Origin: an uncultured Clostridia bacterium
Lineage (GTDB): Bacteria; Bacillota; Clostridia; Christensenellales; UBA1242
Assembly: GCA_947649575.1 (NCBI GenBank)
Contig: CANSRZ010000004.1
Location: 71,569 to 135,568 of the forward strand
Direction of reading: 5' to 3'
DNA length: 64,000 nt
Shown: positions 7,648 to 60,407 of the stretch, piece after piece
Position numbering within the stretch: position 1 is the first letter of the stretch
Layout of the letters: each line of letters starts with the position of its first letter
Notes under the pieces: model-generated
What the model was told of the DNA's origin: nothing
The model's input: the letters and a program-made list of their open reading frames with translations, nothing else
Databases searched by the model: none
Program-made: the position numbers and the translations under genes

Positions 7648-7683
7648 CTTCTTTTCTTTTAAAGAAAAGAAGCAAAAGAAAAC
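7648..7683 (+). repeat. hairpin repeat family, solo copy (CTTCTTTTCTTT-T-AAAGAAAAGAAG + CAAAAGAAAAC), A orientation, directly 3' of trxA
   Basis: Perfect 12-bp polypyrimidine/polypurine inverted repeat followed by CAAAAGAAAAC. The same unit recurs at 15299, 19698, 27133, 27333, 46371 and 46577. Confidence 0.8.
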
Positions 7684-15298: not shown

Positions 15299-15335
15299 AT
15301 TTTTCTTTTGTTTCTTTTCTTTAAAAGAAAAGAAA
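15299..15335 (-). repeat. hairpin repeat family, solo copy (TTTTCTTTTG + TTTCTTTTCTTT-AA-AAGAAAAGAAA), directly 3' of ung
   Basis: Same unit as 7648..7683 in the opposite orientation on the + strand. Relative to ung (minus strand) it lies just after the stop, in the same way as the other A-orientation copies. Confidence 0.75.
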
Positions 15336-17219: not shown

Positions 17220-18215
17220 ATGGATTATGTTACAAAATATATCGCTATTAAAGACGCACTTAATCAATATGGAATGAAAGACCTTGACGAAGCAAAAAAG
17301 ATTTGTCTTGACAATGGAATTGATGTTGAAAGTATTGTTAAAGGCGTTCAGCCAATCTGTTTTGAAAACGCTGTTAAGGCTTACGAACTCGGCACAGCAA
17401 TTGCAATCAAGAGCGGAGTAATATCTGCTTGCGAATGTGCTGAAAAAATAGGTGAGGGATTGCAAGCATTCTGCGTGAAAGGCTCGGTTGCTGATGACCG
17501 CCAAATTGGATTAGGTCATGGCAGGCTTGCTTCAAGACTTTTGGATGAAAAAACAAAATCTTTTGCATTCCTCGCTGGGCATGAATCTTTTGCAGCAGCA
17601 GAGGGGGCTATGGGAATTGTCCGCACTGCAAACAAAGTTAGAACAACTCCTCTTAATGTTATATTGAACGGACTTGGCAAAGACGCAGCATATATTATTG
17701 CAAGAATAAACGGCTTCACTTTTGTGCAAACAGAATACGACCACTATACGGGCGAACTTAAAATTGTCAAAGAGATACCTTTCTCAAAAACTGAGAAAGC
17801 AAACGTAAAAGTTTATGGTGCTTATGACGTTCCAGAGGGCGTTGCAATTATGCAGCACGAAAAAGTTGACGTTTCTATTACAGGCAATTCAACAAACCCA
17901 GTACGTTTCCAACATCCAGTTGCAGGCACTTACAAAAAGTGGTGCAATGAAAACGGAAGAAACTATTTTTCAGTTGCCTCAGGTGGCGGAACAGGCAGAA
18001 CTCTTCATCCAGACAATATGGCAGCAGGGCCTGCAAGTTATGGCTTGACTGACACTATGGGAAGAATGCACTGTGATGTTCAGTTTGCAGGTTCTTCATC
18101 AGTGCCAGCGCATGTTGCAATGATGGGCTTTATTGGCATGGGCAACAATCCAATTGTTGGTGCAACGGTGGCTCTTGCTGTTGCAGTTGCAACAAGCCCA
18201 AGCGTTCAGCATTAA
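17220..18215 (+). CDS. GGGtGRT family protein (function unknown)
   Basis: Contains the eponymous SGGGTGRTLHPDNMAAGPASYG motif. About 330 aa, as in that family. Confidence 0.8.
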   Translation: MDYVTKYIAIKDALNQYGMKDLDEAKKICLDNGIDVESIVKGVQPICFENAVKAYELGTAIAIKSGVISACECAEKIGEGLQAFCVKGSVADDRQIGLGHGRLASRLLDEKTKSFAFLAGHESFAAAEGAMGIVRTANKVRTTPLNVILNGLGKDAAYIIARINGFTFVQTEYDHYTGELKIVKEIPFSKTEKANVKVYGAYDVPEGVAIMQHEKVDVSITGNSTNPVRFQHPVAGTYKKWCNENGRNYFSVASGGGTGRTLHPDNMAAGPASYGLTDTMGRMHCDVQFAGSSSVPAHVAMMGFIGMGNNPIVGATVALAVAVATSPSVQH

Positions 18216-18252: not shown

Positions 18253-19018
18253 AATATAATTCCAAAATTTTATTCATGTCAACAACGTCACTTCCTGTAA
18301 CTATGCCAAGAGTTTTTTGATTTATGTCACCGTCTTTGGTGATAAGAATTGCCAATAATTTTGGCTTATTGTGAAACTCATTCAAAGCTTCTTCAACTGT
18401 GATTGAGGCTGGTGCAATTGTGTAATAATTTGAATTTTCCACAACAGAAAGCATATCTTCAATTTTAACATGATTTAAAAAGTTTTCGCTTTTGCCACCT
18501 GCAAGCAAAAATTGACCGAGGCTATCCAAAATCTTTTGCCCATTTGCAATTCCAATCAAATTTTCGCCGTCATAAACTGGCAAGTTGGAATATTTTGAGG
18601 TTGCCATTAAAGTTATAATATCATACATGCTGGTATCAGCTGAGACTGTTAACACATCACGTCTTGCAACTGTATCAAGTGCTTTTGGAGGAGTGGTTAA
18701 AAGTTTTGCGATGCGCTCTATATCTTCAACAACAGACATATGAGGCTCTGCAATCACGATATCCTCATTTGAGTTGTGAACAATTGCATTTCGAAGCCTG
18801 CCATAATCTATCAAATTATCTTCATTTTTTCTGATGATATAGTTTAAAACAACCGCCTTTCTGATAAGGTCTGAAAAGCCCATGCTTCTGTTTATGCTGT
18901 ATCTCACTTTGAGAGCATAATCGATGTCATTATAGGCGTCAATAAATCGTTTTGCATTTGTTTTTTCTTCATTAATATTTTCTTGTTTGCTAGTTTCTTG
19001 AACTTTTTTCTTTGTCAT
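18251..19018 (-). CDS. CBS domain pair protein with unknown N-terminal domain
   Basis: The C-terminal half shows two CBS-like units (DVLTVSADTSMYDIITLM..., NLPVYDGENLIGI...; ...AILITKDGD..LGIVTGSDV). Confidence 0.65.
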   Translation of the reverse strand: MTKKKVQETSKQENINEEKTNAKRFIDAYNDIDYALKVRYSINRSMGFSDLIRKAVVLNYIIRKNEDNLIDYGRLRNAIVHNSNEDIVIAEPHMSVVEDIERIAKLLTTPPKALDTVARRDVLTVSADTSMYDIITLMATSKYSNLPVYDGENLIGIANGQKILDSLGQFLLAGGKSENFLNHVKIEDMLSVVENSNYYTIAPASITVEEALNEFHNKPKLLAILITKDGDINQKTLGIVTGSDVVDMNKILELY

Positions 19019-19104
19019 AAAACCTCACTAAGTTAATTATATAATAATATTTTATACAAATTTGCAAAAAAAGTAAAATAAAATCGCTAAAAAACAAAAT
19101 TTAC

Positions 19105-19132
19105 TTGACAAAAGTTTTCAGATGGATATACT
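19105..19132 (+). promoter_or_regulatory. promoter of the ileS leader
   Basis: TTGACA (19105-10), 16-nt spacer, TATACT (19127-32). Confidence 0.65.
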
Positions 19133-19139
19133 TAAAGTG

Positions 19140-19382
19140 TATTTGAAATAAAAGCGTTGATGAAAGACAAGGTTTTAAGCGGAAGTTTTCAGAGAGTTGC
19201 TGGTTGGTGAAAAGCAATGGCGGAGGCATAAAATTATCACTTTCGGAGTTGCTTGGCTGAAAATTATAGTAAGGCAAGTCGGGACTTCCCGTTATAGAAG
19301 GCGTGAGTGATAGCTCACTATAAGTTTACAAGTGGTTAAGCCTTTTTAAAGCACGGGGGTCTTGTATCTTTCCGTGCTTTTT
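19140..19382 (+). promoter_or_regulatory. T-box leader (Ile specifier) with intrinsic terminator
   Basis: Stem I elements TGATGA (K-turn), CAGAGAG and GGTTGGTGAAA. Candidate specifier ATC followed by A at 19236-39. UGGU bulge at 19333-36 flanked by ACAAG/CTTGT. Terminator AAAGCACGGG / TCCGTGCTTT followed by a T run (19348-19382). Lies upstream of ileS. Confidence 0.75.
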
Positions 19383-19384
19383 GC

Positions 19385-19581
19385 AACCTGATGTTGCACG
19401 ACTGTCTTATGAGCTTATAGCAAATTCAAATTGTATTCGTTCATAACAAGCGACCAGATGTCGCCCGAGTGTCTGCGAACTGTAATGAAAATTCATTTTA
19501 CAATCGTTCAACTAGCAAAGCGCTTGGCAATTGTCTTATTGGACACTTACAAAAACTAATTAGTTGTGCAACATCTGGTTA
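19385..19581 (+). repeat. approx. 197-nt element closed by a 19-bp imperfect inverted repeat (structured RNA or MITE-like insert)
   Basis: AACCTGATGTTGCACGACT (19385-19403) pairs with AGTTGTGCAACATCTGGTT (19562-19580), with 1 mismatch and 1 G-U. Internal hairpins at 19407-46, 19450-64 and 19478-19508, and helix 19467-74/19541-48. Confidence 0.6.
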
Positions 19582-19697
19582 TTTTCTTCTTTAAATTTTA
19601 TTAAAAAAATAAAAGATAAAGTTTGCGATTTTAGAAATTTGCAAATGAATTAGAAAGAAGAAAAAATCTTAAAGCGAATTTCTTAAATCGCAAAAAG

Positions 19698-19732
19698 TTT
19701 TCTTTTGCTTCTTTTCTTTGAAAGAAAAGAAG
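19698..19732 (-). repeat. hairpin repeat family copy (TTTTCTTTTG + CTTCTTTTCTTT-G-AAAGAAAGAAG type), B orientation, about 10 nt upstream of the ileS RBS
   Basis: GTTTTCTTTTG CTTCTTTTCTTT G AAAGAAAAGAAG. It is the right end of a partial third copy of the 235-bp element (19598-19732 resembles the right halves of the 27133 and 46371 elements). Confidence 0.75.
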
Positions 19733-19753
19733 ATAGGATAAGGAGAGAGAAAA

Positions 19754-22700
19754 ATGAAAAAAGAAAATTCAATGCCAAACTTTGTTGAAATGGAACACGG
19801 CGTGCTAAAACTTTGGGAGGATAACAAATGCTTTGATAAAGTTAAAGCCCAAAACGCAGGACACGAGCGTTTCCGCTTTTTGGACGGCCCTGCAACGGCA
19901 AATAATCGTTTGGGAATTCACCACTTTTGGGGCAGAACGCTTAAAGATTTAACAATTCGATATAACGCACTTAAAGGCAGAGATTGCCAATTTCAAAATG
20001 GCTTTGACGGTCAAGGCCTTTGGGTGGAAGTTAATGTCGAGAAAGAACTAGGCTTAAACGGCAAGCCAGAAATCCAAAAATATGGAATTGATAAATTTAC
20101 CAACAAGTGTATGGAGCGTGTTGCATATTTTGGCAATGAAATAACTCAGCAGTCAAAGCGCATGGGTCAATTTATGGACTGGGAGAATAGTTATTACACT
20201 AACACCGATGAAAATATCACTTCTATTTGGCATTTCCTTAAAACTTGCCATGAAAAAGGCTGGATTGCAAAAAAACATCGTCCAATGGCATGGTGTCCTC
20301 GATGTGGGACAAGCTTGTCTGAGCATGAAATGAGTTCATCTTATCATGAGGTTGAGCACACTGCAATTTATGCTAAATTCCCTGTGAAAAGCAAAGATTT
20401 TTATATCGTTGCATGGACAACAACGCCTTGGACGCTTTCTGCCAATGTGGCACTTGCTGTTAATCCAGAGTTTGATTATGTTAAAGTAGAGTTCAACGGC
20501 GAAAAGCTTGTGCTGGGCAAAGATAGGCTTAAACTTTTGAAAGCGGACGTTAAAATTTTGGAGACTTTTAAAGGCTCTGACCTTGTTGGACTTGAATATG
20601 AAACTTGTTTCCCAGAACTTGGCGACCAAAACTTTGCTCACAAAGTTGTTGCTTGGGATGAAGTCTCTGACGAGGACGGCTCTTGCGTTGTTCATATTGC
20701 ACCTGGCTGCGGTATGGAGGACTTTGAACTTGGACAATCTCTTGGGCTTCCAGAAATTTGTCCAATCAATGAGCAAGGAGTTATGCTTCCGTCAACTGGC
20801 TTCTTGGCTGGCAAAAAGACAACCGATGTTGTTGATTTGGTGGTTGATAGACTTAAACAAGACAATAAATTATTATATGCACATAAGCACAAGCACTCAT
20901 ATCCATTCTGCTGGCGCTGTAAAACTGACCTTGTTTACAAACTTATTGACGCGTGGTTCATCAAGGTAGACGAAATACGTCCAATGGCGCTTAAAGCTAT
21001 TGAAAGCGTTGAGTTTAAGCCTGAATATGCTAAAAAGCGTATGGTTGATTGGCTTTCAAACATGGGCGATTGGAACATTTCTCGTAGTCGTTTCTATGGG
21101 CTGCCACTTCCATTCTATGTTTGCGAAAAATGCAAAAAAGTTCACGTTATTGGCAGTTTGGAAGAGCTTAAAGCAAAGGCGATTGATCCTAGTCTTGTTG
21201 ACAAGCTCCCAAATATTCACAGACCTTGGATTGACGACATCAAAATCAAGTGCGAGTGCGGAGAAGAGCTTTCTCGTGTTCCAGAAGTTGGCGACGTTTG
21301 GCTCGACGCGGGGATTACGCCTTTCTCGACTAAGAAATATTTCACTGACAAAAAGTTTTTTGAAGAAAATTTCCCAAGCCAATATGTTTGCGAAATGATT
21401 GAGCAAATCAAGCTTTGGTTCTATTCACTTTTGATGATGAGCGTTGTTTTGACTGGCAAAGCTCCTTATGAAAAAGTTGTGACTTATCAATATGTTAAAG
21501 ATGAAAACGGCGGGGAATTCCACAAGAGCGGTGGAAATTCTTTGGAAGCCGACCATGTTGCTGATAAAGTTGGCGCTGACGTTGTAAGATATTTGTATTC
21601 TTCTTCAAGCCCTGTCAACGACATGCGTTTTGGCTTTAATTTGACCGATGAGGCAAGACGAAAATTGCTCAGTTTTTGGAATGTTTACACTTTCTTTAAC
21701 ACTTACGCTTGCATTGATAATCCTGATATTGCTGACTTCTATCCAAAAGAAAAAGACCTTTCTTATGCTGATAAGTGGCTGATTGAAAGCGTGAACAAGT
21801 TTATCAAAGATAGTGATGAGAATTATGCAAATGACAAAAACTATTTTGTTGTGCGCGATTTTGAAAAACTGGTGGATGATATTTCAAATTATTATATCCG
21901 CTCAAACAGAAAGCGCTTCTGGAAGAGCGAGAATAAAATCGACCAAATGACCGCTTATTGGTGTTTGTATTATGCAATCAAGTCAATAATTCAAGTTATG
22001 ACACCTATTATTCCATTTGTGACTGAGTATATTTGGCAAAATATGGTACGCGAAGTTGAAAAGAGTGAAAAAGAGTTCATCATGATGGCGGGCTATCCTG
22101 AAAAATTGTATGATAAAACTTTTGACGGCGTGCTTGAAACAACTGCCGTAGCAAGAGATATTATGTCAACTGCTCAGCGTTTAAGAAATGAAAACCAAAT
22201 CAAGGTTAAACAGCCTTTAAAGAAGATGTATGTGGCTGGCGAGAATGTTGAAAGTGTGGTTGAAGTTTTGGGAGAAATCATCAAAGACGAACTCAACATC
22301 AAAGAGATTGAGTGCGTGACTGACGACTCTAAGTTTAACGATGAATATCTGTCTGTCAACTTTAAAAAAGCGGGCGCAGTTTTAAAGGGTGATGTTCAAA
22401 AGCTCAAAAATGCACTTGCTGAATTGACGGATGAACAAATTAAGTTTGTAATGAATGGCTATTATAACGGCAAAGTTAGCGTTGGAGAATTTAAAGACCT
22501 TGACAGTGAACTGTTCAACCTTGAAAAGAAGCCTAAAACAGATTTTGTTATTGCTCATGAAAATGGTAACACCGTTGTGCTTGATATAAATCTTGATAAA
22601 GCGCTTGTATTAGAGGGCTATTATCGCGAATTTGTGAGAGGACTTCAAGTTCTTCGTAAAGAAGCCGATTTTGCAATTGACGAACGCATTTACGCTTACT

Positions 22701-22870
22701 TTGAAACAGCTGATGACGAACTTGCCGAAATGCTTTTCAACTACATGGATAAAATTAAGCAAGAAGTGCTTATCATCCGTGCAGTTGAAAGAGTGCTTAA
22801 GCCAGTGATTGAAAAAAACATTGAAGTTGGCGACAGTTTTATTATTGCAAAGCTAGAGAAATCTGAATAA
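19754..22870 (+). CDS. ileS: isoleucine--tRNA ligase
   Basis: 1038 aa class I aaRS. WCPRCGTSLSEHE zinc/editing-region motif typical of IleS. HIGH-like GIHH and KMSKS-like HKSGGNS. T-box with ATC specifier upstream. Confidence 0.88.
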   Translation: MKKENSMPNFVEMEHGVLKLWEDNKCFDKVKAQNAGHERFRFLDGPATANNRLGIHHFWGRTLKDLTIRYNALKGRDCQFQNGFDGQGLWVEVNVEKELGLNGKPEIQKYGIDKFTNKCMERVAYFGNEITQQSKRMGQFMDWENSYYTNTDENITSIWHFLKTCHEKGWIAKKHRPMAWCPRCGTSLSEHEMSSSYHEVEHTAIYAKFPVKSKDFYIVAWTTTPWTLSANVALAVNPEFDYVKVEFNGEKLVLGKDRLKLLKADVKILETFKGSDLVGLEYETCFPELGDQNFAHKVVAWDEVSDEDGSCVVHIAPGCGMEDFELGQSLGLPEICPINEQGVMLPSTGFLAGKKTTDVVDLVVDRLKQDNKLLYAHKHKHSYPFCWRCKTDLVYKLIDAWFIKVDEIRPMALKAIESVEFKPEYAKKRMVDWLSNMGDWNISRSRFYGLPLPFYVCEKCKKVHVIGSLEELKAKAIDPSLVDKLPNIHRPWIDDIKIKCECGEELSRVPEVGDVWLDAGITPFSTKKYFTDKKFFEENFPSQYVCEMIEQIKLWFYSLLMMSVVLTGKAPYEKVVTYQYVKDENGGEFHKSGGNSLEADHVADKVGADVVRYLYSSSSPVNDMRFGFNLTDEARRKLLSFWNVYTFFNTYACIDNPDIADFYPKEKDLSYADKWLIESVNKFIKDSDENYANDKNYFVVRDFEKLVDDISNYYIRSNRKRFWKSENKIDQMTAYWCLYYAIKSIIQVMTPIIPFVTEYIWQNMVREVEKSEKEFIMMAGYPEKLYDKTFDGVLETTAVARDIMSTAQRLRNENQIKVKQPLKKMYVAGENVESVVEVLGEIIKDELNIKEIECVTDDSKFNDEYLSVNFKKAGAVLKGDVQKLKNALAELTDEQIKFVMNGYYNGKVSVGEFKDLDSELFNLEKKPKTDFVIAHENGNTVVLDINLDKALVLEGYYREFVRGLQVLRKEADFAIDERIYAYFETADDELAEMLFNYMDKIKQEVLIIRAVERVLKPVIEKNIEVGDSFIIAKLEKSE

Positions 22871-27124: not shown

Positions 27125-27132
27125 GAGTTTGA

Positions 27133-27367
27133 CTTACTTTTCTTTTAAAGAAAAGTAAGCAAAAGAAATATAAAAGCCTTTCTTAATTATTAAATAATTG
27201 GCGAAAGGCTTTAAAATTTTTTCTTATTTTTAAAAAAAGTAAAAAATATAATATTTAACGTTTTGAAAAATTTCCGAATTACTTTAATGAGAAAAGGATT
27301 TTAAAGCAAATTTAAAAAGCGTTAATATTTAGATTTCTTTTGCTTCTTTTCTCAAAAAGAAAAGAAG
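27133..27367 (+). repeat. full-length approx. 235-bp intergenic element (MITE-like) with hairpin-containing terminal inverted repeats, copy 1
   Basis: Left end CTTACTTTTCTTTTAAAGAAAAGTAAG CAAAAGAAAT (27133-69). Right end ATTTCTTTTG CTTCTTTTCTCAAAAAGAAAAGAAG (27333-67). Internal boxes TTAACGTTTTGAAAAATTT (27255-) and AAATTTAAAAAGCGTTAA (27308-25) are shared with copy 2 at equivalent offsets. Confidence 0.8.
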
Positions 27368-46356: not shown

Positions 46357-46370
46357 GTTTGTTTTTATGT

Positions 46371-48583
<2,213 letters not shown>

Positions 48584-50745: not shown

Positions 50746-50876
50746 CAGCCCAAGCGCTGCGCGACTGTCAGCATAGAGAATTGAAATTTATGTTGCATTC
50801 GTTCTACATTTAATAAAAATTACTAAATTAAAAACATATTTATGTGCTACGGCACTGCAAAAGGAGGATTTATACA

Positions 50877-60290: not shown

Positions 60291-60407
60291 TTATACATTA
60301 CGAGTTGAATATCGCTTGAGCGACGTTGGTGCAATATTTGGCCTTTTGGCCGAAAAACCTTTAACTTTTAAGTTAGGCTTTAAGATAATCGTCGAACATT
60401 TGGTTCA

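Follow-up and report, generated by a model that had tools for sequence, protein, structure and literature searches.

The BOX elements of Streptococcus pneumoniae are boxA-boxBn-boxC composite repeats, that is, short, dispersed, intergenic and non-coding composites whose tandem internal modules vary by slippage or unequal crossover and whose terminal modules can pair into a stable stem-loop on transcription; they are enriched downstream of genes and have neither a clear target-site duplication nor a proven mobilising enzyme (Croucher et al. 2011, PMC3049150). The REP and BIME sequences of enterobacteria and pseudomonads are small palindromic units in 3′ untranslated regions or between cistrons, often very near a stop codon, which form mosaics and in which the stem structure is kept rather than the sequence (Nunvar et al. 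2010, PMC2817692). The MIRUs of mycobacteria are head-to-tail units of 40-100 bp found at about 40 loci, inside operons and in sense orientation, with ends in exact register with the translation signals of their neighbours and with filled and empty sites between species (Supply et al. 1997, as summarised in PMC3184786 and PMC12548453). These traits recur in the repeat family described here. We conclude, with high confidence, that a strongly folded 197-nt segment in the leader of an ileS gene is a passenger insertion, namely a composite copy of this lineage-restricted, non-autonomous and modular family.

The window, a stretch of 64,000 nt, covers positions 71569-135568 of contig 4 of a genome of 1.09 Mb (35% G+C, 95% complete, 9 contigs), referred to as G000. 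Upstream of ileS, no strong sigma-70-type match occurs besides the promoter-like site listed in Table 1. When positions 18950-19850 were compared with Rfam at E ≤ 10, the sole match was a T-box (RF00230, 19148-19367, full model length, 86.3 bits, E = 3.5e-19), the weak matches at 19600-19800 being chance ones. Because the gathering score is 93, a default Rfam scan of the window misses this T-box, and the scan of the whole window at gathering thresholds returned the SRP RNA only. We accept 19148-19367 as a T-box despite its sub-threshold score, given the E-value, the Ile specifier, the terminator and the homology to the T-boxes of congeners. The T-box match ends at 19367, the U-tract ends at 19382 and the ileS ATG stands at 19754, which agrees with the approximately 370 nt that the original prediction had placed between terminator and start codon. 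All of this extra leader is repeat DNA, made up of the 197-nt element and a copy of a second family; the earlier assignment of 19598-19732 to another element family was thus correct. An exact-protein look-up of the gene upstream gave no match at the level of a strain comparison, and the 27-mer of the T-box terminator had none in metagenome contigs.

Table 1. Features of the ileS leader and of related repeats (window positions unless a contig is named)
Feature	Position	Strand	Details
Promoter-like site	19105..19132	+	TTGACA-16-TATACT; 11/12 consensus positions
T-box leader	19148..19382	+	Ile specifier AUC (...UUAUCAC...), read from sequence
T-box terminator	19348-19356 with 19372-19380; U-tract to 19382	+	AAAGCACGG pairs with CCGTGCTTT, read from sequence
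Repeat unit 1, intact	19383..19448 (G000:C4:90949-91016)	+	nhmmer E = 6.4e-15; covariance model 71.2 bits
Repeat unit 2, diverged	19450..19515 (C4:91016-91083)	+	nhmmer E = 9e-5; covariance model 50.6 bits
Repeat unit 3, decayed, 5′-truncated	19518..19560	+	..GCGCTTGG-CAATTGTC-TTAT..; nhmmer E = 0.79 only
Inverted 5′ module of a unit	19562..19581	-	reverse complement TAACCAGATGTTGCACAACT = H1 + ACNAC
Second, unrelated interspersed repeat, copy	19582..19753 (172 nt)	+	107 genome BLAST matches; families D1 and D2
ileS	19754..22870	+	ORF, 1038 aa, T-box-regulated
Single unit	50746..50804 (G000:C4:122314-122372)	+	directly after TAG ending a 134-codon frame
Single unit	60347..60407 (G000:C4:131915-131975)	-	directly after TAA ending a 131-codon frame on the minus strand
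Family end sequences			24-nt H1 end and CGACTGTC end
Third-module sites	G000:C4:36328-36400, C4:71080-71130, C1:22604-22650, C1:133010-133040, about 10 more		outside or at the edge of the window
Second-family examples in the window	7648-7683, 15299-15335, 19708-19732, 27128-27175, 46366-46413		

The first base of unit 1 is the base directly after the U-tract of the T-box terminator. The unit begins with the short hairpin that we call H1 (GCAAC-CTGAT-GTTGC, 19383-19397) and continues with ACGACTGTC, an AT-rich variable part and ATTCGTTCATAACA. Unit 2, intact as well, has the same plan, with its H1 (GCGAC-CAGAT-GTCGC, 19450-19464) followed by CCGAGTGTC and, further on, by AATCGTTCA, while unit 3 was called by eye from its likeness to GCTTGG-CGATTGTC-TTAT in other units. 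The right end of the segment is of another kind, as BLAST matched segment positions 178-196 to the opposite strand of the starts of other units. The 19-position closing helix (19385-19403 with 19562-19580) exists because this inverted 5′ module pairs with the 5′ module of unit 1; it has 17 Watson-Crick pairs in 19 (89%), one mismatch and one G-U, as had been predicted. The predicted interior also holds up, in that a helix pairs 19407-19419 with 19434-19446, the hairpin 19478-19508 is present in the minimum-free-energy fold, and the GCGAC hairpin lies where it was placed. The inner helices, however, are hairpins of the units themselves, the GCGAC hairpin being the H1 of unit 2.

A BLAST search of the genome with the 197 nt, a check for further copies that the original prediction had proposed, gave dozens of partial matches, mostly to the first 65-90 nt and often in tandem. 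The family comprises 61 units at 33 loci when counted with a profile (E < 1e-3) or 68 when counted with a covariance model, in 33-36 arrays of one to four units each on seven of the nine contigs, and Tandem Repeats Finder reported arrays with a period of 63-66 on five contigs. A unit measures 63-66 nt (about 64) and has four parts: (i) H1, a hairpin of 5 bp with a 5-nt loop, which occurs as GCAAC-CAAAT-GTTGC, CAAGC-CTAAC-GCTTG, CGAAC-, GCGAC-, GCAGC- and other variants; (ii) RCGAYTRTC; (iii) an AT-rich variable part of about 25 nt; and (iv) TTTATYCGTTCA, often followed by TAACA. H1 modules stand inverted at both ends at five loci (ileS, C6:38787-39139, C3:24575-24965, C5:114906-115237 and C4:31190-31334), and the inverted end is missing from most arrays. 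With dispersed intergenic copies, a variable number of tandem internal modules and distinct end modules, the family is BOX-like. The unit definition and the covariance model let "structured intergenic RNA" amounting to about 4 kb in this genome, and in the relatives that carry it, be seen as one family.

Several other classes of repeat were considered and rejected. The period of 63-66 nt recalls a CRISPR array, but the "repeats" vary within arrays, the "spacers" are homologous between units and there are 33-36 loci; neighbouring "spacers" are sometimes identical, with C1:42652-42845 at 96%. The repeats of type III toxin-antitoxin systems were set aside since there are arrays at more than 30 loci and they stand behind housekeeping genes (nrdR, def, rpsO-pnp, tRNA-Pro), integron attC/CALIN sites were ruled out on architecture, and CGAAC-N5-GTTCG is not spaced as a LexA box would be.

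The resemblance to BOX is one of architecture only, and the present family is confined to one genus of uncultured Clostridia; here each internal unit has its own covarying hairpin, most copies lack the inverted end, and the 5′ end is locked to stop codons, which is not reported for BOX. REPs are 20-40 nt long and G+C-rich, whereas the hairpin here has 15 nt; a 5′ GTAG is conserved in REPs, which also come with a RAYT (Y1 transposase), whereas no match to Y1 (PF01797) was found here; and the units here are direct rather than alternating. REPs at most 15 nt from a stop codon reportedly lower translation (Liang, Rudd and Deutscher 2015). MIRUs carry a small ORF that overlaps the start and stop of their neighbours, whereas stops interrupt each of the three frames of the present units, whose periods (63-66) are not all multiples of three. 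MIRUs are also said to insert at start codons with tetranucleotide direct repeats, whereas the units here abut the upstream stop and show no direct repeats. The intergenic mosaic elements of neisseriae (dRS3/RS arrays), in which a short palindromic repeat alternates with segments of 50-150 bp, have the array layout seen here, but dRS3 is a phage integration target, which sets it apart. Correia elements have 26-bp inverted ends, target TA with duplication of the TA, and are cut by RNase III when transcribed. We know of no sequence relation between these neisserial elements and the present family. As it has no RAYT, no ORF and no target-site duplication, the family is therefore a new one of the BOX/REP/MIRU-like kind and a member of none of these, the comparison with BOX being by architecture alone.

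H1 is the only helix that RNAalifold predicted from 48 aligned units. Its covariation is pronounced: 89.6% of cells pair, 59 cells carry double changes, none of 500 shuffles reached the observed value and slid controls gave 22-37%; in the best register, 227 of 240 pairs are Watson-Crick. H1 is read as a folded single strand, and G-U and A-C combinations in it are balanced (3 vs 4), a count that shows no asymmetry and does not tell the RNA level from the DNA level. In the AT-rich part, individual units can pair into a second hairpin, but RNAalifold gave no consensus for it. Across the 48 units, covariation for a multi-helix fold is thus confined to the 5 bp of H1.

The position of H1 relative to genes is far from random. 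In 17 of the 36 arrays of G000, the first H1 lies at -1 to +3 of the stop codon closing a frame of 60 codons or more, against 2.6% expected from random oriented intergenic placement (P about 6e-18) and 7.4% expected after any intergenic TAA, TAG or TGA (P about 1e-10); in four further arrays, H1 either follows the end of the frame by a few bases or has that end, a TAA, in its loop. The junction always reads TA|R with the stop codon kept, and comparison of filled and empty sites shows that this stop belongs to the gene itself, whose relatives stop at the same codon. TAG makes up 9 of the 17 register stops vs 12% of stops genome-wide, and TGA occurs once. Other carriers show the same register (5 of 7 in G012, 6 of 9 in G118 and 2 of about 4 in G079), as do G017 and a MAG from outside the sample. 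Elsewhere the left neighbour is a terminator T-run (the ileS T-box; rpsO before pnp) or the base after the CCA end of tRNA-Pro, and inverted units adjoin the ribosome-binding site (RBS) of the next gene. What precedes H1 is a stop codon, a T-run or an RBS and no fixed tetranucleotide. Arrays usually lie between a stop codon and an intrinsic terminator and have the orientation of the upstream gene; roughly one unit in four is antisense or adjoins a promoter or RBS.

A literature search found no described repeat family that is locked to stop codons in like manner. We suggest, quite tentatively, that the family as a whole is a stop-registered one, being either mobile DNA directed to the TA of TAA and TAG (and to terminators and tRNA 3′ ends) or a hairpin kept by the host in 3′ untranslated regions that couples translation with the fate of the mRNA. 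To our knowledge, neither TA-directed insertion at stops nor hairpin coupling at termination sites has been described for a bacterial repeat family. If this suggestion were true, the copy in the ileS leader would be an off-target or re-used member, and if the register reflects a mechanism, it would open a new approach to the way in which small repeats find safe sites and could bear on how events at stop codons affect mRNA.

The best surviving alternative to a passenger insertion is that the units are exapted mRNA modules, in which the terminating ribosome would melt H1 at the stop and H1 would refold when translation stops, coupling translation to decay, processing or ribosome release; the same unit in the ileS leader would then be a processing or stability element. 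This would account for the stop register and its recurrence in G012, G118, G079 and L074, for the prevailing sense orientation between stop and terminator, for the covarying stem and the motifs kept in old copies, and for a few copies whose stem is altered to pair with the stop codon itself (e.g. TGACC/GCTCA and TAAGC/GCTTG). We nevertheless consider it unlikely, as the family is absent from more than 90% of the sampled congeners, which rules out an essential function, and some orthologous copies have decayed (G000 C2:45224 vs that in G012). In addition, a 5-bp hairpin is weak, no G-U vs A-C strand asymmetry points to a constraint at the RNA level, and the quarter of the units that are antisense or beside promoters and RBSs does not fit. 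Together with the strict stop register, the conservation of H1, CGAYTRTC and CGTTCA in old copies suggests that this may be more than a selfish family; any host function that it has could extend to the ileS copy.

Units from separate loci are no more than 85% alike, most of them below 80%, whereas neighbours within an array reach 91-96%; it follows that arrays change by local duplication, and there is no sign of recent transposition. Of 141 sampled congeners, 8 gave matches to the family at E ≤ 1e-6 and two more at laxer cut-offs, and none of 16 genomes from 16 other families of the order did. Outside this sample, the exact 22-nt end motif occurred in only two other MAGs and one metagenome contig; at these three loci it never flanked a gene, and nothing similar was found in phage and plasmid records. 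Carrier species have their arrays at different genes, at sites that are empty or differently filled in G000 and vice versa, with shared sites at nrdR and, between G000 and G118, at the 666-aa gene at C5:51805. It is from these filled and empty sites that "insertion" would follow. The family is evolving by module exchange. Variants were noted at L040 and L078 of G010 and at L098. In G010, units have a different 5′ module (TGGTGAGGCRCCCAAC before H1) and the 3′ motif CCGCTCT and do not stand at stop codons, and an extra palindrome, GCAAACTTAGTTTGC, follows H1 in several species.

A miniature inverted-repeat insertion, one of the three possibilities originally offered for the segment, came closest to the truth, as the segment is a dispersed repeat copy with inverted ends. 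That it is a classical MITE, i.e., an element derived by deletion from an insertion sequence, with inverted repeats at its ends and mobilised by a transposase of the DDE type that duplicates its target (e.g., TA), is less probable still than exaptation. The five loci with inverted H1 modules at both ends and the filled and empty sites speak for such an origin, as does the TA of every stop junction, since a TA duplication would produce both this TA and the one often found after ...GTTCA where units end. A TA duplication is indeed compatible with the sequence at these junctions, but TA is absent at all others (terminator T-runs, tRNA end, RBS), and comparison of the sequences on either side of the five two-ended copies revealed no shared direct repeat, so that no unambiguous target-site duplication is seen. 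Moreover, most copies are head-to-tail arrays without the inverted end, and their divergence between loci, given above, is that of old copies rather than of a plain MITE. No gene for a Y1, TnpB-type, rve, DDE_Tnp_1 or serine-recombinase enzyme was found in the 95%-complete genome: PF01797, PF00665, PF01609 and PF00239 had no match, and PF07282 had a sub-threshold match within a 737-aa frame only. No repeat in the genome is longer than about 600 bp. A 697-aa gene flanked by units on contig 4 was considered as a transposase and turned out to encode PNPase. Separately, we noted seven tyrosine-recombinase genes in the genome, one of which (C1:130331-130876) lies 2 kb from an H1 array.

The remaining readings of the segment make it an RNA element of the ileS leader in its own right. 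The fold of the plus strand (-63.9 kcal/mol) is much more stable than that of 200 shuffles (-39.6 ± 3.9 kcal/mol; z = -6.3, no shuffle as good), and that of the minus strand gave z = -3.5. The structure of the segment thus exceeds chance, but this non-randomness reflects its construction from repeated modules, of which one is inverted, rather than a conserved architecture of the RNA; the large 197-nt fold follows as a by-product from the way the modules are arranged. ileS orthologues, sought with the first 600 nt of the gene as query, were found in 34 of 60 congeners (the nearest about 77% identical in ileS), and the upstream regions of 29 were read. Most of these leaders have a homologous T-box. 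In the eight genomes in which the alignment reaches the end of the terminator, that end lies 15-20 nt before the ATG vs 369 nt here, and the order is terminator, U-tract, a few bases, AGGAG, ATG. In seven congeners (L050, L052, L053, L055, L061, L063 and L067) there is no T-box and ileS follows directly after the upstream gene. The 197-nt element occurs in none of the 29. A dedicated second riboregulator or an independent small RNA gene, the other two possibilities of the original prediction, would suit the very stable fold and the location between a riboswitch-like leader and its gene but is highly improbable, as the element is missing from all 29 homologous leaders, has no Rfam match at 19385-19581 even at E ≤ 10 and no promoter-like or terminator-like site within it (nor any promoter-like site within 19383-19753), is one of 60-odd repeat copies whose modules recur at more than 30 unrelated loci, and shows covariation for the 5-bp H1 only. 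A false lead is thereby removed: a strongly folded stretch behind a riboswitch-like leader can be mere repeat DNA, and fold z-scores are inflated by inverted repeat modules.

In the ileS leader, the position of the element directly after the U-tract is forced, because in relatives no more than a few bases separate the U-tract from the RBS. The element and the second-family copy occupy these few dispensable bases, and the T-box alone would decide on read-through, the repeat having no sensing role. The repeat would be transcribed as a passenger that lengthens the 5′ untranslated region by about 350 nt and might at most alter the processing or stability of the ileS mRNA; the long closing helix could plausibly serve as a substrate of RNase III. 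The number of units in an array probably rises and falls through slippage or unequal recombination. Inserts have landed repeatedly in the ileS leader. In L065 it holds a different tandem repeat (units of CAAGCAAAGCACAAC..), and in L064, L069 and L072 it holds other, unrelated inserts of 100-250 nt.

Some arrays were noted for their surroundings. The four-unit array G000:C5:91744-92077 (L004) begins one base after the CCA end of tRNA-Pro(CGG). In the rpsO-pnp leader (G000:C4:2066-2314), four units stand directly after the rpsO terminator, and an inverted unit (G000:C4:4792-4852) abuts the RBS of the gene after pnp. The pnp leader of other bacteria is a known target of RNase III autoregulation. 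At the end of a 331-aa ORF in the window (17220-18215), the last codons (...ATSPSVQH*, 18194-18215) are read from a decayed H1 module (CAAGCCCAAGCGTTCAG), so that the C-terminal tail of this ORF looks repeat-derived. The orthologue in G014 reads into H1 and stops at the TGA of GTTTGACGG, and a three-unit array follows. A third module, AAAYAGAAA-GTGCCATTGGCAC-ACGCTTGGCGA, with a hairpin of 5 bp and a 3-nt loop, closes many H1 arrays (about 14 sites).

In the second repeat family, present at about 67 sites genome-wide, a palindromic hairpin of 23 nt (TACTTTTCTTTTAAAGAAAAGTA or TTCTTTTCTTT-N-AAAGAAAAGAA) precedes AGCAAAAGAAAA. The copy of this family in the ileS leader ends in the perfect hairpin CTTCTTTTCTTT-G-AAAGAAAAGAAG (19708-19732), after which comes the ileS Shine-Dalgarno sequence AAGGAGAG (approximately 19741-19748). 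The hairpin often adjoins H1 arrays and, at about 30 of the approximately 67 sites, begins 2-12 nt after the stop of a long frame. As this hairpin, too, is found behind stops, the post-stop position is a general niche in G000, whereas the exact stop register belongs to the H1 family only. A gut Clostridia genome of 1.1 Mb that is 88-90% coding thus carries two abundant families of hairpin repeats just behind its stop codons.
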